From the NCBI GenBank assembly GCA_046074525.1, contig JBJTOK010000079.1, positions 9,894 through 73,893 on the forward strand: a stretch of DNA of 64,000 nt, read 5' to 3'. Every line of letters begins with the position of its first letter. Position 1 is the stretch's first letter. The position numbers were made by a program, and so were the translations under genes. The DNA is from Flavobacteriales bacterium (GTDB lineage: Bacteria; Bacteroidota; Bacteroidia; Flavobacteriales_C; GCA-002722245). The notes under the pieces were generated by a model that had not been told where the DNA came from, searched no databases, and saw only the letters and a list, made by a program, of their open reading frames with translations. Below are positions 2,673 through 61,038 of this stretch, piece after piece.

Positions 2673-4409
2673 TTAATAAGTCATGCTGAACATTACTACC
2701 ACCTGATTGATAGAGTAAGTATTGGCCGCAGTTTTATTATCTGTGTAGTTGAAGATATGGTCCTGTAAAGTGAGGTAAGTTTTTTCGCTGAAGCGGTATT
2801 TTAATCCCACTGCAATTAAGCTTTGTTTCAAATCAACATTGATAGGGTTGAAGGTGGTAATGTCATTGAATTTGTTTCTTACCGCCATTGATTCGTTACC
2901 TTGTGCGAGTAGCATTTTGTAGCCGGCGAGCAAGCTCAGTTTCTTGAAAGTTTCCACTTCCAGTCCGAGATCCACCATGTTGTTCATCAGACTCACATAA
3001 GTTGTAGTATCGCCGCCTCTGTTGGTAGATTCAAATTTGTAACCAGTATTCACAATCAATCTTTTTTTCCATCCGAGGAATTTATTGATGTGGAAATCAA
3101 CACCACCTTTTACCACGATGAAAGAGCGAAGTTGTGCGGAACCTTCACCTACTACTTCCGAAAGGAAAGCAGCATCAACATCGGCTATGATGCGTTGCAG
3201 TGAGTCGCTGCATTGCAGGTTGATGTTAGCGCCGGTACGGTTAGGTGTAGCTTTTCCGTAAGGTTGTGCATTGCCGTAAATTGGATTGTAAGCCATGAGT
3301 GTAGTTACAATTCCGGCATTGTATAAAGCAGGATCTCTCACCAGGTCGAAGATGGAAATGCCACGGGAGATAAGGTTTGTTACATCATTTCCATAGTTGG
3401 AAAAAGTAGTAGGTGTATTTGTGTAATTCACTCGTTTGCTTTGTGCTGCCGAGCTGAAGAAATTAGGATCAACATAAGAATAGTTGGCACTGATAATGGT
3501 GTTGGCATTCTTCAGTTTCAGTTGCAATCCGGCATCGAAGAAAGCCCCCATTTTGGTGTCTACATTATATCCTTTGAAGCTGTATTGCGAGAAACCACCT
3601 TCGGCCATTAATTTCAGTTTCATTTTATTGTTGGCAAACAGTGCCGCTTCCACTTCAGCAGAACCTACAGGATTGCTTGTAGTCAAACTGTCGATGATAG
3701 TATTGGTTCCTACTTCATAAAGATCGAGGTAGTTGAAAGCCAGTTTTAATTTGCTGCTTTGCGTTACCGTAATCTTACCTCCTGCGTGGAAGGCCGAAGG
3801 AAACTGGGCATAGCTGGCTCTGTTTCTGAGGAAGAAACCATCAATGCGAATGGTATCAAATAAAGATTTGTCGAACGCAAAAGAAAAATTAGTGTGCGCT
3901 CCCTGCTGCCACCATGCATTGCCGCGGTTGCTGAAGTTTTCATAATTTGTGTAATCGTTGCGCAAATCGCGGAATATGCTTCCTTCGTTCACAGAACCTT
4001 CTGCGTTGTTGTTGAAGAAAGTATAAGGAGTGAGCTGCATATATAAATCTCCTACCTGATAATTAAAAGCTCTTCCAACAATGCCTTTTACATAAAGTTG
4101 TCGCAATGTTGCCTGGGCACCGGCAGTATAGAAGCCATTGAAATTATTGTTGAAACGCACGATGGCCTGTATCTCAGTTCTTTTGTCGGGATTAACATTG
4201 ATACCCAAATCGAGTAACACATTTCCTTTATTGGTATGGTCGGGATTAACGGTATCGGCTGCTCCCAGCGTATTGGTTTGTTGCAATGCCCTTGAATAGG
4301 CATTGAATTTTATTTTGTCATCCTGTGCGTTCATCAATTGAACGCCGATGAGCATTAAGCCGGCTAAGAGCGCTTTCTTATTCATTTTATGTAGATATGA
4401 AGTTTGCAT
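2673..4409 (-). CDS. Uncharacterised outer-membrane beta-barrel candidate (putative porin-like). The true start is probably the internal ATG at 4385 (MNKKALLAGLMLIGVQLMNAQ).
   Basis: It has a cleavable signal peptide without a lipobox Cys. Amphipathic alternating beta-strand patterns occur throughout (LKLAFNYLDLYEV, KLKLMAEGGF). The C-terminus is aromatic (..VVVMFSMTY). No TonB box or plug motifs are present. Confidence 0.5.
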   Translation of the reverse strand: MQTSYLHKMNKKALLAGLMLIGVQLMNAQDDKIKFNAYSRALQQTNTLGAADTVNPDHTNKGNVLLDLGINVNPDKRTEIQAIVRFNNNFNGFYTAGAQATLRQLYVKGIVGRAFNYQVGDLYMQLTPYTFFNNNAEGSVNEGSIFRDLRNDYTNYENFSNRGNAWWQQGAHTNFSFAFDKSLFDTIRIDGFFLRNRASYAQFPSAFHAGGKITVTQSSKLKLAFNYLDLYEVGTNTIIDSLTTSNPVGSAEVEAALFANNKMKLKLMAEGGFSQYSFKGYNVDTKMGAFFDAGLQLKLKNANTIISANYSYVDPNFFSSAAQSKRVNYTNTPTTFSNYGNDVTNLISRGISIFDLVRDPALYNAGIVTTLMAYNPIYGNAQPYGKATPNRTGANINLQCSDSLQRIIADVDAAFLSEVVGEGSAQLRSFIVVKGGVDFHINKFLGWKKRLIVNTGYKFESTNRGGDTTTYVSLMNNMVDLGLEVETFKKLSLLAGYKMLLAQGNESMAVRNKFNDITTFNPINVDLKQSLIAVGLKYRFSEKTYLTLQDHIFNYTDNKTAANTYSINQVVVMFSMTY

Positions 4410-57218: not shown

Positions 57219-57416
57219 GTTTAGCGAAGCGTAACTTGACGGAATTTTTTCCTGAAGCTTTCAGCTTCGTTATTGTTTTTGGATGGGAAGCTGAAAGCTT
57301 CGGTAAAAGATTCCGCTAAGTTGAAAACTTAGCAGAGGGGCGGGGTAGGGATTTTCAATCCCTGGCGATTGCAAATCGCCGCTATGTAGATTTCAGATTA
57401 CGCTTCGCTAAATCTA
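57219..57416. repeat. IR-bounded highly structured intergenic element. The outer 15-bp IR is tttagcgaagcgtaa / ttacgcttcgctaaa. It encloses an inner IR (gaagctttcagcttc / gaagctgaaagcttc) and three further hairpins.
   Basis: It is read directly, and all arms were verified as reverse complements. Confidence 0.5.
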
Positions 57417-57605
57417 AATTACGGTTTCTTACTTTTCTAATTTGAGTTTAAATATTTTGTTGATTATCCATATAGGTACCCAAACAGGCCAGTATGCAAC
57501 GCCTATTCCAATAGGTCCTTGATGTCTAAGGCTAAGTAAGAATTTAAGTGCTTGTCTGTTTTTTTTCATTGCACGGTATTATAAAAAAAAGGCGAATATT
57601 ACTTC

Positions 57606-57797
57606 AGTCATGGTCGGAAGATCTTTTTAATTGACTATTTTATCTTGATGCCACAATGGTAAACCTGATTTACCTTACCGTTTTTGAGGTAGCCGCAATG
57701 CTTGCGGCTGAAGTGTAGTCTTGAAATCCATTTCATGGCCGCAAGCATTGCGGCTCAACCTCAAAAAAAATGGTCGGAATTTCTTCCGACCATGACT
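57606..57797. mobile_element. MITE-like non-autonomous element (192 bp). It has perfect 15-18-bp terminal inverted repeats (agtcatggtcggaag ... cttccgaccatgact) flanked by a direct duplication (gaatattacttc, 57594-57605 and 57798-57809). It is inserted in the loop of the lpdA terminator.
   Basis: The TIRs and flanking duplication are read directly. Removing the element plus one duplication copy restores A8-ggcgaa-tattac-ttcgcc-T4, a canonical terminator hairpin. The element carries an internal 22-bp-stem hairpin (gaggtagccgcaatgcttgcggc / gccgcaagcattgcggctcaacctc). Confidence 0.6.
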
Positions 57798-57837
57798 GAA
57801 TATTACTTCGCCCTTTTAAGTTATTTGAGAAGTTGTC

Positions 57838-59226
57838 TTACAAATGTATCACTTCCCCATACGCAGCAGCTGTAGCTTCCATAATAGCTTCGCTCATGGT
57901 TGGGTGAGGGTGAACTGCTTTGAGGATTTCGTGACCTGTAGTTTCGAGTTTCTTCGCTACTACAATTTCAGCGATCATTTCGGTAACGTTGAGGCCTATC
58001 ATGTGGGCACCCAGCAGTTCGCCGTACTTAGCATCGTAAATCACTTTGATGAACCCGTCTTTCGCACCGGCTGCAGAAGCTTTACCAGAAGCGCTGAAAG
58101 GGAATTTACCTACTTTAATTTCATGTCCTGCTTCCTTCGCTTTTTTCTCTGTCATACCTACAGAAGCAATTTCCGGTGAGCAGTAAGTACAACCTGGGAT
58201 GTTTGAGTAATCCAATGGTTCAGGGTGGTGACCAGCGATTTTTTCTACGCAGATGATTCCTTCTGCAGAAGCAACGTGTGCCAGGGCGGCAGTTGGGATT
58301 ACATCGCCTATAGCGTAGTAACCTGGGATGTTGGTTTGGTAGTAGTCGTCAACTTTGATTCTTCCTTTGTCGGTTACGATACCTACATCTTCTAATCCAA
58401 TATTTTGGATGTTAGCCTCAATACCTACAGCAGAAAGAACGATTTCAGCGTCGAGCGCTTTCTCGCCGTCTTTCGCTTTGATAGTTACTTTACAGTCTTT
58501 TCCGGTAGTGTCCACCTTCTCAACAGAAGCGTTGGTCAGTACTTCAATCCCTTGTTTCTTGAATGATTTTTCGAGTGCCTGGGAAACATCAGTATCTTCA
58601 ACAGGAACGATGTTCGGCAAATATTCCACTACAGTTACCTTAGTCCCCATAGCGTTGTAAAAATAGGCAAATTCAACACCGATAGCTCCTGATCCTACGA
58701 TCACCATTGATTTTGGTGCTTTAGGCAAAACGAGGGCTTCACGGTAGCCAATGATTTTTTTGCCATCCTGCGGCAGGTTTGGCAGCTGACGGGAGCGGGC
58801 TCCTGTAGCGATGATAATACTTTTAGCGCTTACCTCAGATTTCTTTCCGTCGGCAGCGGTTACTTCAACTACTTTTCCTGCTTTTACCTTAGCAGTTCCG
58901 GCAATGACCTCAATCTTGTTTTTCTTCATCAGGAACTGGATGCCTTTGCTCATGCCATCGGCAACATCGCGACTTCTTTTTACAACCTTGCTGAAATCAG
59001 CTTCGGCACTTTTTACAGTAATACCATAATCAGCAGCGTGGTTAATATATTCAAAAACGTTGGCGCTCTTTAATAAAGCTTTGGTTGGAATACAACCCCA
59101 GTTGAGGCAGATTCCGCCCAGCTCAGAACGTTCAACGATAGCAGTTTTTAAACCCAGTTGGGAAGCGCGGATAGCAGCAACATATCCACCAGGGCCGCTT
59201 CCTATTACGATAAGATCAAAATTCAT
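57838..59226 (-). CDS. lpdA: Dihydrolipoyl dehydrogenase (E3 component).
   Basis: The FAD motif is VIGSGPGGYVAAIRA, the redox disulfide motif is GGICLNWGCIPTK, and the C-terminal HPTMSE interface motif is present. The length is 462 aa. Confidence 0.9.
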   Translation of the reverse strand: MNFDLIVIGSGPGGYVAAIRASQLGLKTAIVERSELGGICLNWGCIPTKALLKSANVFEYINHAADYGITVKSAEADFSKVVKRSRDVADGMSKGIQFLMKKNKIEVIAGTAKVKAGKVVEVTAADGKKSEVSAKSIIIATGARSRQLPNLPQDGKKIIGYREALVLPKAPKSMVIVGSGAIGVEFAYFYNAMGTKVTVVEYLPNIVPVEDTDVSQALEKSFKKQGIEVLTNASVEKVDTTGKDCKVTIKAKDGEKALDAEIVLSAVGIEANIQNIGLEDVGIVTDKGRIKVDDYYQTNIPGYYAIGDVIPTAALAHVASAEGIICVEKIAGHHPEPLDYSNIPGCTYCSPEIASVGMTEKKAKEAGHEIKVGKFPFSASGKASAAGAKDGFIKVIYDAKYGELLGAHMIGLNVTEMIAEIVVAKKLETTGHEILKAVHPHPTMSEAIMEATAAAYGEVIHL

Positions 59227-59265: not shown

Positions 59266-61038
59266 TTAGTGGGGAATGACGGCATAGGGTCCTTTGAAAA
59301 AATCCAGATGCGTGTACTTGTCATAGTAGACACATTCCTGCTTCTGGCAAATGTCGCTCCATTTGTACTTTTTCTTGAAAAAGCGCACTTCATAATTAAT
59401 GCCTTTAGCCAGGTCAGAAGCGGGGAAAAGCGTATTGACCTGGACGTAAATCACGTTGGCATATTCATACTGCTTATTGATGCAGAATTCTACAAAGGTT
59501 TCATACCATTGCTCAAAATCATTCGGATGCCTTCTTAGATAATCAAAGCAAATAGCGGTGTCCATTTTGTTTCCATCCTGCATGTACCAGAAAAGTGTTT
59601 TGAAATATTCAGTGTTGGCAGTGTCTTCTATGTAAGCTGATTTGATGTAATGTAAGGCGCTGTCGGATAGTAGTTTATTCTCGTAAATAACCGAGTGCCA
59701 GTCGCCGTACAAATTTCCTATTGCATATAAGGTTTTGGCGTGATCGTATTGTGGGTTATTGAGATGAGATTTAAAATGCTCTACGCCGGCAGCGGCAATG
59801 GGGCCAATTTTCTTAAAAGGGATATCGCTGTCCCGACAACCGGATATGTAAGAATGCCAATATTTGGAATCATTGGAATCCAGTCTGAGCGCTTCTTTCA
59901 GATAAGTAGTTCTTTCCGCTCTCCTGCTACTGTATTCAATAACTTCTGCTTTCCATAAGTGATATTTAGGATTTCCTGGCTTTAGTAAGGAGGCCTTATT
60001 CACACAGTCGAAAGCTTTGTTGAACAGCATTTCTTTTTCTTCTTTGCCTTTGCCATTATCCCATTCGACTTTGTTTCCTTTATAGTAGTAACATAAACCC
60101 ATCCAGTAATAGGACCAGTCACTTTTAGGATTGCCTTTTATCGCCACCTGATAATACTTTATCGCAGTGTCGTAGTCGTCGATATCATAATAACAATTTG
60201 CCACTTCTTCGTTTAAGCGGCCATTATCATAATCTGTTTTCATCAGATTCAAAAACACTTTAATGGCCTGGTCGTACTGTTTTAAATATTTGTAGCACAA
60301 ACCAATATTGAAAAACGCAGCTTTGTCTTTGCCCACTGCATACGATTTGCGATAATATTCCATGGCTTTATCATATTTTTCCTGATCGAAATAAACACCT
60401 GCAATCCCAAAATTTCCGCTGGCTTCATCCACTTTCAAGAAATCGGCGTAAACCACCATAGCCTTGTTGAATTCATTGTTGTCGCGATAGTAAGTCCCTA
60501 CTGTCCTGTAGCATTTTTCAAAAAAAGGATTTTCTTTTTTCACCAGGTCGAAGTAGTGTTGAATGTTTTTTTCATTCTTCTCTTCCACGGCGATGATGAG
60601 CATGAACTGCAGGGCATCGGTGAAATGAGGGTCGTTTTTTAAAACCAAATCGAGGTATTGATGCGCCTTTTCAAATTCTTTGCTTTCATGAGCCTTATAA
60701 GCTTTTGAATAATAGTAAATAGTAGAATCGTACAGTGTTTTGTTCAGGGCTAAAAATTTATTCGCTTTTTTAAGATGTTTTTTATCGCAGGGTTGATTTA
60801 CAATGCGGATGAACAAACGGCTACTCTCGCATAACTTATTGTTTTTATCATAGAGAATAGCTGCATAATAATTTTCTTCACCTGTAGCATTCTCAAACAA
60901 GTTGTTTTTCTGGCAATAACGTAAGCCTTCAATATAATTTTTCTTTTTAATGAAAAATTTCAGGGTGTCGCTGTGATTTTGCGCCAATCCTGCAAAATAC
61001 AGCATGCTCAGTAATAATAGAAGCAGATAATTTTTCAA
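59266..61038 (-). CDS. Tetratricopeptide-repeat protein with a signal peptide (unknown function).
   Basis: It has multiple TPR-like 34-aa repeats (..AIKYYQVAIKGNPKSDWSYYWMGLCYY..) and the N-terminal signal MKNYLLLLLLSMLYFAGLAQ. Confidence 0.65.
   Translation of the reverse strand: MKNYLLLLLLSMLYFAGLAQNHSDTLKFFIKKKNYIEGLRYCQKNNLFENATGEENYYAAILYDKNNKLCESSRLFIRIVNQPCDKKHLKKANKFLALNKTLYDSTIYYYSKAYKAHESKEFEKAHQYLDLVLKNDPHFTDALQFMLIIAVEEKNEKNIQHYFDLVKKENPFFEKCYRTVGTYYRDNNEFNKAMVVYADFLKVDEASGNFGIAGVYFDQEKYDKAMEYYRKSYAVGKDKAAFFNIGLCYKYLKQYDQAIKVFLNLMKTDYDNGRLNEEVANCYYDIDDYDTAIKYYQVAIKGNPKSDWSYYWMGLCYYYKGNKVEWDNGKGKEEKEMLFNKAFDCVNKASLLKPGNPKYHLWKAEVIEYSSRRAERTTYLKEALRLDSNDSKYWHSYISGCRDSDIPFKKIGPIAAAGVEHFKSHLNNPQYDHAKTLYAIGNLYGDWHSVIYENKLLSDSALHYIKSAYIEDTANTEYFKTLFWYMQDGNKMDTAICFDYLRRHPNDFEQWYETFVEFCINKQYEYANVIYVQVNTLFPASDLAKGINYEVRFFKKKYKWSDICQKQECVYYDKYTHLDFFKGPYAVIPH

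Follow-up and report, generated by a model that had tools for sequence, protein, structure and literature searches.

It is known that several kinds of mobile elements associate with transcription terminators or other palindromic DNA. IS1272/TnSha1, an insertion sequence (IS) of the IS1182 family in staphylococci, inserts in terminator hairpins that were confirmed by RNA-seq and that share no primary-sequence consensus; its blunt cut in the stem removes part of the hairpin and leaves no target duplication (PMC4923244). ISRm22 inserts at the symmetry axis of REP sequences, and its hybrid copies with mismatched repeats are explained by recombination between copies (PMC1525189). SPRITE of S. pneumoniae and the group IIC introns are associated with, or mimic, Rho-independent terminators (PMC10969869, PMC7923331). 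The IS4 family, which De Palmenaer et al. defined by the transposase signature Y(2)R(3)E(6)K, produces a duplication of about 10 bp (PMC2266710). MIC231 derivatives of IS231 consist of the ends only and are mobilised in trans (PMC6199540).

The locus described here is the lpdA terminator in a 64-kb stretch of DNA that was analysed as a whole (the window). A 194-bp segment in this terminator is very probably an IS4-derived MITE. Its parent resembles the IS4 family in having a single-ORF DDE transposase with the Y(2)R(3)E(6)K signature, an IS length of about 1.4 kb, 5′-CA termini and a duplication of about 10 bp, and the MITE resembles MIC231 in being a transposase-less derivative that keeps only the ends. 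IS231A itself, as Hallet and co-workers reportedly found in 1994, prefers symmetric GGG(N)5CCC sites with bent A/T-rich DNA on either side. Unlike other IS4 members, the Bacteroidota clade to which the parent belongs has its own end, CAGTCATGGTCGGAAG, and an inward hairpin with a T-run at both ends, and its targets have a common shape (A-tract, GC stem, loop, stem and T-tract) but no common stem sequence.

The likeness to IS1272/TnSha1 lies in the terminator-hairpin target. However, the window element sits at the dyad and deletes nothing, its family duplicates 9–10 bp and its transposase belongs to another family, so that it does not have the features of IS1182/IS1272-type hairpin targeting. 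The REP/BIME-targeting ISs (ISRm22, ISPsy8, IS1397 and ISPpu9/10) also insert at the symmetry axis of a palindrome, but their target is one repeated family per genome, whereas the present clade uses unrelated individual terminators. SPRITE is likewise a small terminator-like element, but neither an IS parent nor a logic of insertion in terminator loops is known for it. Group IIC introns differ in being retroelements that read a hairpin in single-stranded DNA and insert downstream of the stem-loop.

Structure of the Element

The features of the locus are listed in Table 1. The MITE, written from its left (IRL) to its right (IRR) end on the plus strand, has TIRs that match at 16 of 16 positions (57605–57620 and 57783–57798). 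The repeat finder reported the inverted ends as AGTCATGGTCGGAAG at 57606–57620 and 57783–57797, perfect and stretching to 18 nt, with the extension running outwards through the palindromic flank. It also found a perfect 12-nt direct repeat, GAATATTACTTC, at 57594–57605 and 57798–57809. In the IRL remnant the TIR is intact, and the inward hairpin of the IS (GTCGGAAG, loop, CTTCCGAC, T6) has decayed.

Table 1. Features of the lpdA locus, in positions of the window.
Feature	Position	Strand	Basis or remark
Small downstream ORF, 46 aa	57429..57569	-	Conserved in closest relatives
Split lpdA terminator, distal half	57583..57596	-	Matches 3′ arm and T-run of intact terminator GGGCGAAgtaataTTCGCCCtttttt in L035/L036
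TSD, left copy, AATATTACTT	57595..57604		Direct repeat; single copy at the L035/L036 empty site
MITE, 194 bp	57605..57798	+	Both ends carry the perfect 16-nt TIR CAGTCATGGTCGGAAG and align to an intact IS4-family IS
Left-end (IRL) remnant	57605..57643	+	Alignment to IS left end; IRL comparison
Internal long hairpin	57681..57767		Repeat finder; arms 57681–57708 and 57738–57767
Right-end (IRR) module	57763..57798	-	Terminator scan; local fold; present at the IRR of every family member examined
TSD, right copy, AATATTACTT	57799..57808		Direct repeat; single copy at the L035/L036 empty site
Split lpdA terminator, proximal half	57807..57817	-	Matches 5′ arm of intact terminator in L035/L036
lpdA, dihydrolipoyl dehydrogenase, 462 aa	57838..59226	-	Translation

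Between the two ends lies a 118-bp, hairpin-rich passenger that is unrelated to the parent IS. Its long hairpin had been described as a 22-bp stem in a preliminary description of this DNA; it instead comprises 28 paired nucleotides (10 + 18) interrupted by a 2-nt bulge and closed by a 29-nt loop, and each arm contains its own GCCGCAA-nnn-TTGCGGC mini-hairpin. The ORF list shows no transposase ORF in the MITE, and a tblastn search of the 64-kb window with the IS transposase returned noise only; neither a full-length IS or transposase related to the MITE nor another copy of its end sequence was present in the window. A known RNA family was ruled out, as Rfam gave no match at gathering thresholds in the whole window and a permissive scan of 57400–57900 gave sub-threshold matches only, mostly to microRNA-precursor models of the kind that generic hairpins attract. 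An integration site of the tRNA/tmRNA type was also ruled out, there being no tRNA or tmRNA in the window.

Insertion Into the lpdA Terminator

The lpdA product is 100% identical to a protein named dihydrolipoyl dehydrogenase in a "Flavobacteriales bacterium" MAG. As lpdA and the 46-aa ORF lie on the same strand, the terminator separates two co-oriented genes. On the minus strand, its proximal half follows the lpdA stop codon at a distance of 20 nt and reads aaaa GGGCGAA, and its distal half reads TTCGCC followed by T8.

To obtain the unoccupied locus, the contigs of relatives were fetched by means of the closest other LpdA proteins (94–95% identity). In two of them (L035 and L036, LpdA 95% identical), the site is empty and reads GGGCGAA-gtaata-TTCGCCC-T6 within AAAGGGCGAAGTAATATTCGCCCTTTTTT. 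After the lpdA stop, both continue with ctttaaaGGGCGAAgtaataTTCGCCCttttttatataaaa and then with the same small ORF that lies downstream of the element in the window. Their sequence equals that of the window minus the element and one copy of the repeat. When 57606–57809 was deleted in silico and the remainder was aligned to L035, the alignment was gapless across the junction, with AAAGGGCGAAGTAATATTCGCC identical. Relative to the empty site nothing has been deleted, and the duplication is present. In five further relatives (L037–L041, LpdA 94% identical), the site is also unoccupied and carries a variant terminator, GGGCGAAGgaaattTCTTCGCCC; the possibility that the orthologous terminator already bears the TIR sequence in all close relatives is thus excluded by L035–L041.

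The target, lying about 20 nt past the lpdA stop, is therefore a hairpin with the shape of an intrinsic terminator, in which a stem of 6–7 bp encloses a 6-nt loop and a T-run follows. Since relatives whose LpdA is 95% identical have this site unoccupied, the element is a true and recent insertion at the dyad of the lpdA terminator hairpin. These results agree with the preliminary description in several respects. It had proposed a miniature element without transposase, with perfect TIRs and a true TSD, which is borne out by the repeats, the tblastn search and the empty site; it had placed the insertion in the loop of the lpdA terminator, as the relatives confirm; and the target that it had reconstructed by removing the element and one repeat exists in L035/L036. 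The empty site that it had suggested seeking in relatives was found, and none of the seven loci carries a TIR-bearing sequence there. At the lpdA locus little is at stake, as a predicted terminator is kept and no gene is disrupted.

The Parent Insertion Sequence

The 18-mer end of the element was searched in 185,579 representative genomes, one per species, and in JGI metagenomes. The genome scan gave 23 matches. An arithmetic estimate predicts about 17 by chance for an 18-mer in 596 Gb, and about half of the matches were chance ones, lying inside unrelated coding DNA of other phyla. Only Bacteroidota matches in a hairpin and T-run context were kept for analysis. This continuation is common to the matches in Kordia, Aquimarina, Kaistella, Pedobacter, Flexithrix, a Flammeovirgaceae MAG and an unclassified Bacteroidota MAG.

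The same end adjoins IS4-type transposase genes in Aquimarina, Algibacter, Cloacibacterium, Mucilaginibacter, Cellulophaga, gut Bacteroidales and metagenomes. In Aquimarina, an ORF begins about 130 nt inside the end, and its homologues adjoin a DDE_Tnp_1 (PF01609) ORF. One intact copy (L046) is 1398 bp long, with perfect ends and a single 413-aa ORF that scored 136.4 bits against NF033592, the "IS4 family transposase" model, above its cut-off of 115. The Y(2)R(3)E(6)K signature appears as YRRRWDIEVFFRFIK in the translations of L046 and L064. More than 3,170 homologues of the transposase were found at E < 1e-20, mostly of 405–406 aa, and many bear the name "IS4 family transposase", including some in Lutibacter, Maribacter and Cellulophaga. 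Contigs of about 1.39 kb carry many of the homologues, which is what collapsed multi-copy ISs would give.

The parent is thus an IS of about 1.39 kb with a transposase of 405–413 aa, widespread in Flavobacteriia, Sphingobacteriia, Cytophagia and Bacteroidia. The end consensus does not match the published IS4 subgroup patterns, and open-access full texts gave no description of this clade of Bacteroidota elements, of the way it selects its targets or of terminator-like modules at its ends. By sequence, the MITE ends are assigned to an IS4-family DDE insertion sequence.

When the MITE was compared with the parent, its positions 157–192 were identical to the right end of the intact IS of L068 at 35 of 36 positions, and positions 1–38 aligned to the IS left end over about 38 nt. 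The 118-bp interior showed no similarity to any part of four full-length ISs, and had no copy in the fetched loci (BLAST) or in viral contigs. The segment thus combines the marks of a MITE, namely small size, absence of a transposase, TIRs matching an autonomous IS, a TSD of the parent length and an empty site. One copy lies in the window; as a MITE, the element would be mobilised in trans and may be multi-copy.

Termini and Length of the Duplication

In the family, the three bases outside AGTCATGG vary between copies (TTC, GCT, AGC, GCC or TCC) and always match the local stem, which indicates that they belong to the target. At either end of all the full copies examined, the single base just outside AGTC was C or, in some cases, T, which makes 5′-CAGTCATGGTCGGAAG the terminus, an IS4-like "CA" end. 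Counted from AGTC, the repeats in L068, L069, L065 and the window measure 11–12 nt, or 9–10 bp if the terminal Y is part of the IS (Table 2). The apparent 12-nt repeat in the window is explained by the palindromic target.

Based on the Y-AGTC termini of family members and the 9–10 bp TSDs of L068, L069 and L065, the window TSD is most likely 10 bp, with the element termini at 57605 and 57798. This length lies within the 8–13 bp, about one helical turn, of the IS4 family. A duplication of 6–12 bp had been proposed earlier. The range stands as a formal ambiguity, with the left copy falling within 57594–57605, but its 6-bp end does not: the reading as a 6-bp TSD plus an 18-nt TIR was dropped because the outer three bases are copy-specific and the single outer base is always C/T.

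Target Sites of the Family

Retrieval of copies by their transposase is free of the bias that a DNA search pattern brings. About 10 independent full-length insertions retrieved in this way all lie at the dyad of a hairpin composed of A-tract, GC stem, loop, GC stem and T-tract (Table 2). The features common to the sites are the A-tract, a GC-rich inverted repeat, a spacer of 4–6 nt, the T-tract and a duplication that has the dyad at its centre; from one site to the next, the stems have no primary sequence in common. In L066, L080, L025, L026, L064, L078 and L079, the IS lies between A-tract plus stem and stem plus T-tract, and L064, L078 and L079 represent half-sites of the same kind. The terminator-hairpin targeting first proposed for the window element thus holds, on the reconstructed sites, for the whole parent family. 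A target consensus GAAC-N4-GTTC was rejected as an artefact of the search pattern, which starts with TTC, and it is absent from the protein-retrieved copies.

Table 2. Insertion sites of family members, with repeats in brackets at the junctions.
Locus	Junctions	Reconstructed empty site	TSD	TSD length
Window			AATATTACTT	10 bp
L068	aaaaaaaCCG[GGATTGATGTCC]-IS-[GGATTGATGTCC]CGGtttttttt	aaaaaaaCCGGGA-ttgatg-TCCCGGtttttttt	GATTGATGTC	10 bp
L069	aaaaaaaTGCC[GGCTCAATGCC]-IS-[GGCTCAATGCC]GGCAtttttt	aaaaaaaTGCCGGC-tcaat-GCCGGCAtttttt	GCTCAATGC	9 bp
L065, Cloacibacterium	aaaaaaaGCG[CTCTTTCGAG]-IS-[CTCTTTCGAG]CGCttc	aaaaaaaGCGCTC-tttc-GAGCGCttc	CTCTTTCGAG	10 bp
L080		aaaaaaTGCGTGTC-ctag-GACACGCAtttttt		
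L066		aaaaaaaCCGCC-cgaa-GGTGGttatttt		
L025, Algibacter		aaaaaGCAGCC-caaat-GGCTGCttttttt		
L026, gut Bacteroidales conjugative element		aaaGGCGGAT-tcgc-ATCCGCCttt		

It is conceivable that a full-length IS4-family copy inserted at lpdA and lost its interior there, never having been mobilised as a MITE. The family does leave short derivatives in place: the Pedobacter copy L022 is decayed and 610 bp long, and in L007, L023 and L056 end-to-end hairpins of 37 bp occur. No second copy of the exact MITE was found in the window, in the 185,579 genomes or the JGI metagenomes (both searched through the 18-mer end) or in viral contigs. However, a simple internal deletion fails to explain an interior unlike that of four full-length ISs, and with perfect TIRs (16/16), a perfect TSD (10–12/12) and an empty site in 95%-identical relatives there would have been little time for deletion and replacement, so an in-situ relic is improbable. 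Far less credible is the reading in which the flanking GC stems and A/T runs form part of the element as long composite TIRs, with no targeting of terminators. Although several loci of Kordia and of metagenomes share the junction GCGAACTTCGG-TTCAGTC, such recurring TTC junctions are an ascertainment effect of an 18-mer that starts with TTC; the flanks of L046 and L026 are inverted rather than direct repeats, but perfect direct repeats of 10–12 nt occur in L068, L069, L065 and the window. The stems differ wholly between copies (CCGGGA, TGCCGGC, GCGCTC, GCAGCC, GGCGAA and others), and for the window the reading is refuted by its stems forming an intact hairpin at the empty site of the relatives. 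The cognate transposase suggested in the preliminary description, of the IS200/IS605 or IS1595 type, has virtually no chance of being correct: subterminal hairpins and a TTAC tetranucleotide beside the left end would suit a palindrome-associated element or an IS1595-type MITE mobilised by a hairpin-recognising Y1 (HUH) or IS1595 enzyme, but IS200/IS605 elements (PATEs) have neither TIRs nor a target duplication, whereas the window element has both, and a DDE_Tnp_1/NF033592 transposase lies between these ends at more than 10 loci, with no Y1 or IS1595 domain seen. The identity of the transposase refutes this assignment, and the ends belong with the IS4-family DDE element.

Predicted Replacement of the Terminator

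The hairpin at the right end of the MITE, ATGGTCGGAA-tttc-TTCCGACCAT, occupies 57770–57793 and is followed directly by a T-run on the lpdA (minus) strand. A consensus terminator scan described it as 10 pairs (5 GC) with a 4-nt loop and T7–8. On the minus strand, the IRR module consists of the inner part of the TIR (TGGTCGGAA), the loop GAAA, TTCCGACCA and T8 facing into the element, and its local fold is −16.6 kcal/mol. The GC-containing stem, short loop and U-run are those of an intrinsic terminator, and the scan and the fold confirm the right-end hairpin with T8 that had been noticed earlier. On the lpdA strand, this hairpin comes directly behind the disrupted one.

Every IS end examined carries an inward-facing hairpin and T-run. 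The left-end module of the family reads CAGTCATG-GTCGGAAG-(5–7 A/T)-CTTCCGAC-TTTTTT, and the right-end module CAGTCA-TGGTCGGAA-GAAA-TTCCGACCA-TTTTTT. In both, the inner TIR forms the 5′ arm and an inverted copy beside it forms the 3′ arm, in a register that differs between the ends. Because one arm is the TIR itself, covariation in these hairpins is uninformative, and they might serve transposase binding instead of termination. The presence of a module at every family end examined makes the replacement terminator a family trait with a predicted function. The window element has an intact right-end module, which faces lpdA; its left-end module is decayed, and no gene reads into the left end.

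Judged by its sequence features, the donated IRR hairpin is probably the working terminator of lpdA, a reading that we favour somewhat over its competitors. It is possible but unlikely that, real as the insertion is, transcripts read through this hairpin or stop at a composite structure, in which a TIR–TIR stem is closed by the old GGCGAA/TTCGCC stem with T8 at its far end. A fold of the whole element (256 nt, −109 kcal/mol) does pair the TIRs and re-form the outer stem before the U8. However, the IRR hairpin would form first during transcription, it has all the features of a strong intrinsic terminator (a 9–10 bp stem, a GAAA loop and U8), and the same module is conserved at every IS end. According to the folding model, the re-formed old stem before the distal T8 could act as a backup terminator behind the IRR hairpin.

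Proposed Mechanism and Significance

The MITE is proposed to retain only the ends that the transposase recognises, that is, the 16-nt TIRs and about 20 nt of subterminal sequence at each, around the unrelated passenger, and the transposase would be supplied in trans by a full-length IS elsewhere. A two-fold symmetric transpososome may dock on the symmetric, bent or extrudable palindrome and carry out strand transfer at points 9–10 bp apart around its centre. At lpdA, a 10-bp staggered cut would have duplicated the 6-nt loop together with 2 bp of each stem arm. Recognition of the site would thus be by shape (bent or extrudable), and recognition of a primary sequence is not supported.

Inward terminators at IS ends are classically read as protecting the transposase gene from outside transcription. 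The end modules may similarly stop host transcripts that enter the element, so that the transposase gene is shielded, and they may also restore termination for genes whose terminator was split. The lpdA transcripts would now end at the IRR hairpin and U8, about 55 nt downstream of the stop codon.

The window element is in itself a clean and fairly ordinary mobile-element insertion, and the behaviour of the family is moderately interesting. We tentatively suggest, as a possibility that we hold short of an even chance, that a large Bacteroidota IS4 clade uses terminators as a structure-defined safe harbour, integrating at the dyad regardless of stem sequence and remaining "termination-neutral" by virtue of its inward end terminators. 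If so, the elements, their MITEs and the 37-bp footprints would be continually rebuilding the 3′ ends of host operons and perhaps diversifying them. If the family pattern holds in a survey and a transposition assay, the clade would provide a tractable DDE-transposase system for target choice based on shape or structure. The pattern would also offer a natural transposon that lowers the cost to its host by replacing the signal that it destroyed. For annotation, terminators and 3′ UTRs of Bacteroidota may often be IS or MITE ends.

Copies With Irregular Flanks

A direct TSD is absent from several copies: in L046 and L026 the loop is inverted, and in L073, L078 and L079 the flanks are mismatched. 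In L073, the left flank is that of L069 and the right flank that of L068, and L078 and L079 each join halves of different hairpins. These three resemble the hybrid copies of ISRm22. By analogy with that IS, copies without a TSD would need secondary events, such as recombination between copies; for the mismatched flanks on metagenome contigs, chimeric assembly is an alternative.

The copies retrieved with the DNA pattern behave like those retrieved by protein, as seen in Kordia (L007), Pedobacter (L022) and L051/L060. The last two loci look like the two junctions of one insertion.

Flanking Sequences and Hairpins at the Insertion Sites

The flanks of two full copies of the IS4-family parent of the MITE, L046 (IS at 137-1534) and the gut Bacteroidales locus L026 (IS at 2838-4246), were found to match over 12 nt on both sides, except for the central 4 nt, which were inverted (TTCG/CGAA and TCGC/GCGA, respectively). 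The pattern of L026 recurred at L027-L034. These 4 nt form a hairpin loop. The inversion possibly arose through recombination between copies residing in like hairpins; template switching that corrected a loop mismatch in the stem formed by TIR plus flank is also possible. At another locus, L073, the same IS lay between the left flank of the insertion at L069 and the right flank of the insertion at L068, so that L073 is either a recombinant of two IS copies or a chimeric assembly. As in L073, the two sides of the IS at L078 and L079 were halves of different terminators.

An inverted repeat was present at 57233-57322 of the window, with arms of 36 nt (86% complementary) and a spacer of 18 nt. 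Each arm contained one hairpin of the form GAAGCT-loop-AGCTTC, and the loop was flipped from arm to arm; L035, a relative with an empty site, had a single hairpin of this type versus the two in the window. The same pattern of a duplicated hairpin with a flipped loop was observed in the MITE interior (57691-57708 and 57738-57755).

L001, a Logan contig with an identical lpdA, terminated 32 nt inside the element, just past the right-end hairpin (L001 6418-6458). The break of the de Bruijn graph at this terminus suggests that sample SRR29270175 contains the right IS end in at least two different contexts.

Gene Content Around lpdA

A small ORF past the lpdA terminator (57429-57569, minus strand) encoded 46 aa in the window versus 68 aa in L035 and L036, and was not present in the relatives L037-L041. 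The window lineage lacks approximately 60 nt for the hydrophobic N-terminus, a loss independent of the MITE. A TPR-repeat gene was absent in all of these relatives (L035-L041; 94-95% identical LpdA), where lpdA directly followed the peptidase gene, but was present in the window and L001.

Split Transposases and Solo Palindromes

The transposase was broken into two or three ORFs (e.g., 159 + 239 aa) in many IS copies. The gut-metagenome copy, with 171 blocks in the contig index, showed an identical split in all nine places shown; the split probably marks a fixed pseudogene, with programmed frameshifting the less likely reading. With Toprim/topoisomerase, DUF3945, and type I restriction genes nearby, this copy appears to sit within a conjugative element.

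Solo palindromes consisting of a left-end core, 7 A/T nucleotides, and a right-end core were also observed, and those of L007 (Kordia) and L023 were located within split terminators with repeats on the flanks. A deletion within a full IS could account for them: the left-end hairpin and the right TIR share the 8-mer CTTCCGAC, and recombining these two occurrences with loss of the sequence between them would leave a very long hairpin ahead of the old T-run.

Table. Coordinates of split transposases, solo palindromes, and the TPR-repeat gene
Feature	Locus	Position	Strand	Remark
Split transposase ORFs of IS copy	L026-L034	3001-4213
Split transposase ORFs of IS copy	L025 (Algibacter)	3001-4210
Split transposase ORFs of IS copy	L064
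Split transposase ORFs of IS copy	L065 (Cloacibacterium)
Split transposase ORFs of IS copy	L066
37-bp solo palindrome	L007	891-927
37-bp solo palindrome	L023	1084-1120
37-bp solo palindrome	L056	712-748
TPR-repeat gene, 590 aa	window	59266-61038	-	between lpdA and M61 peptidase gene
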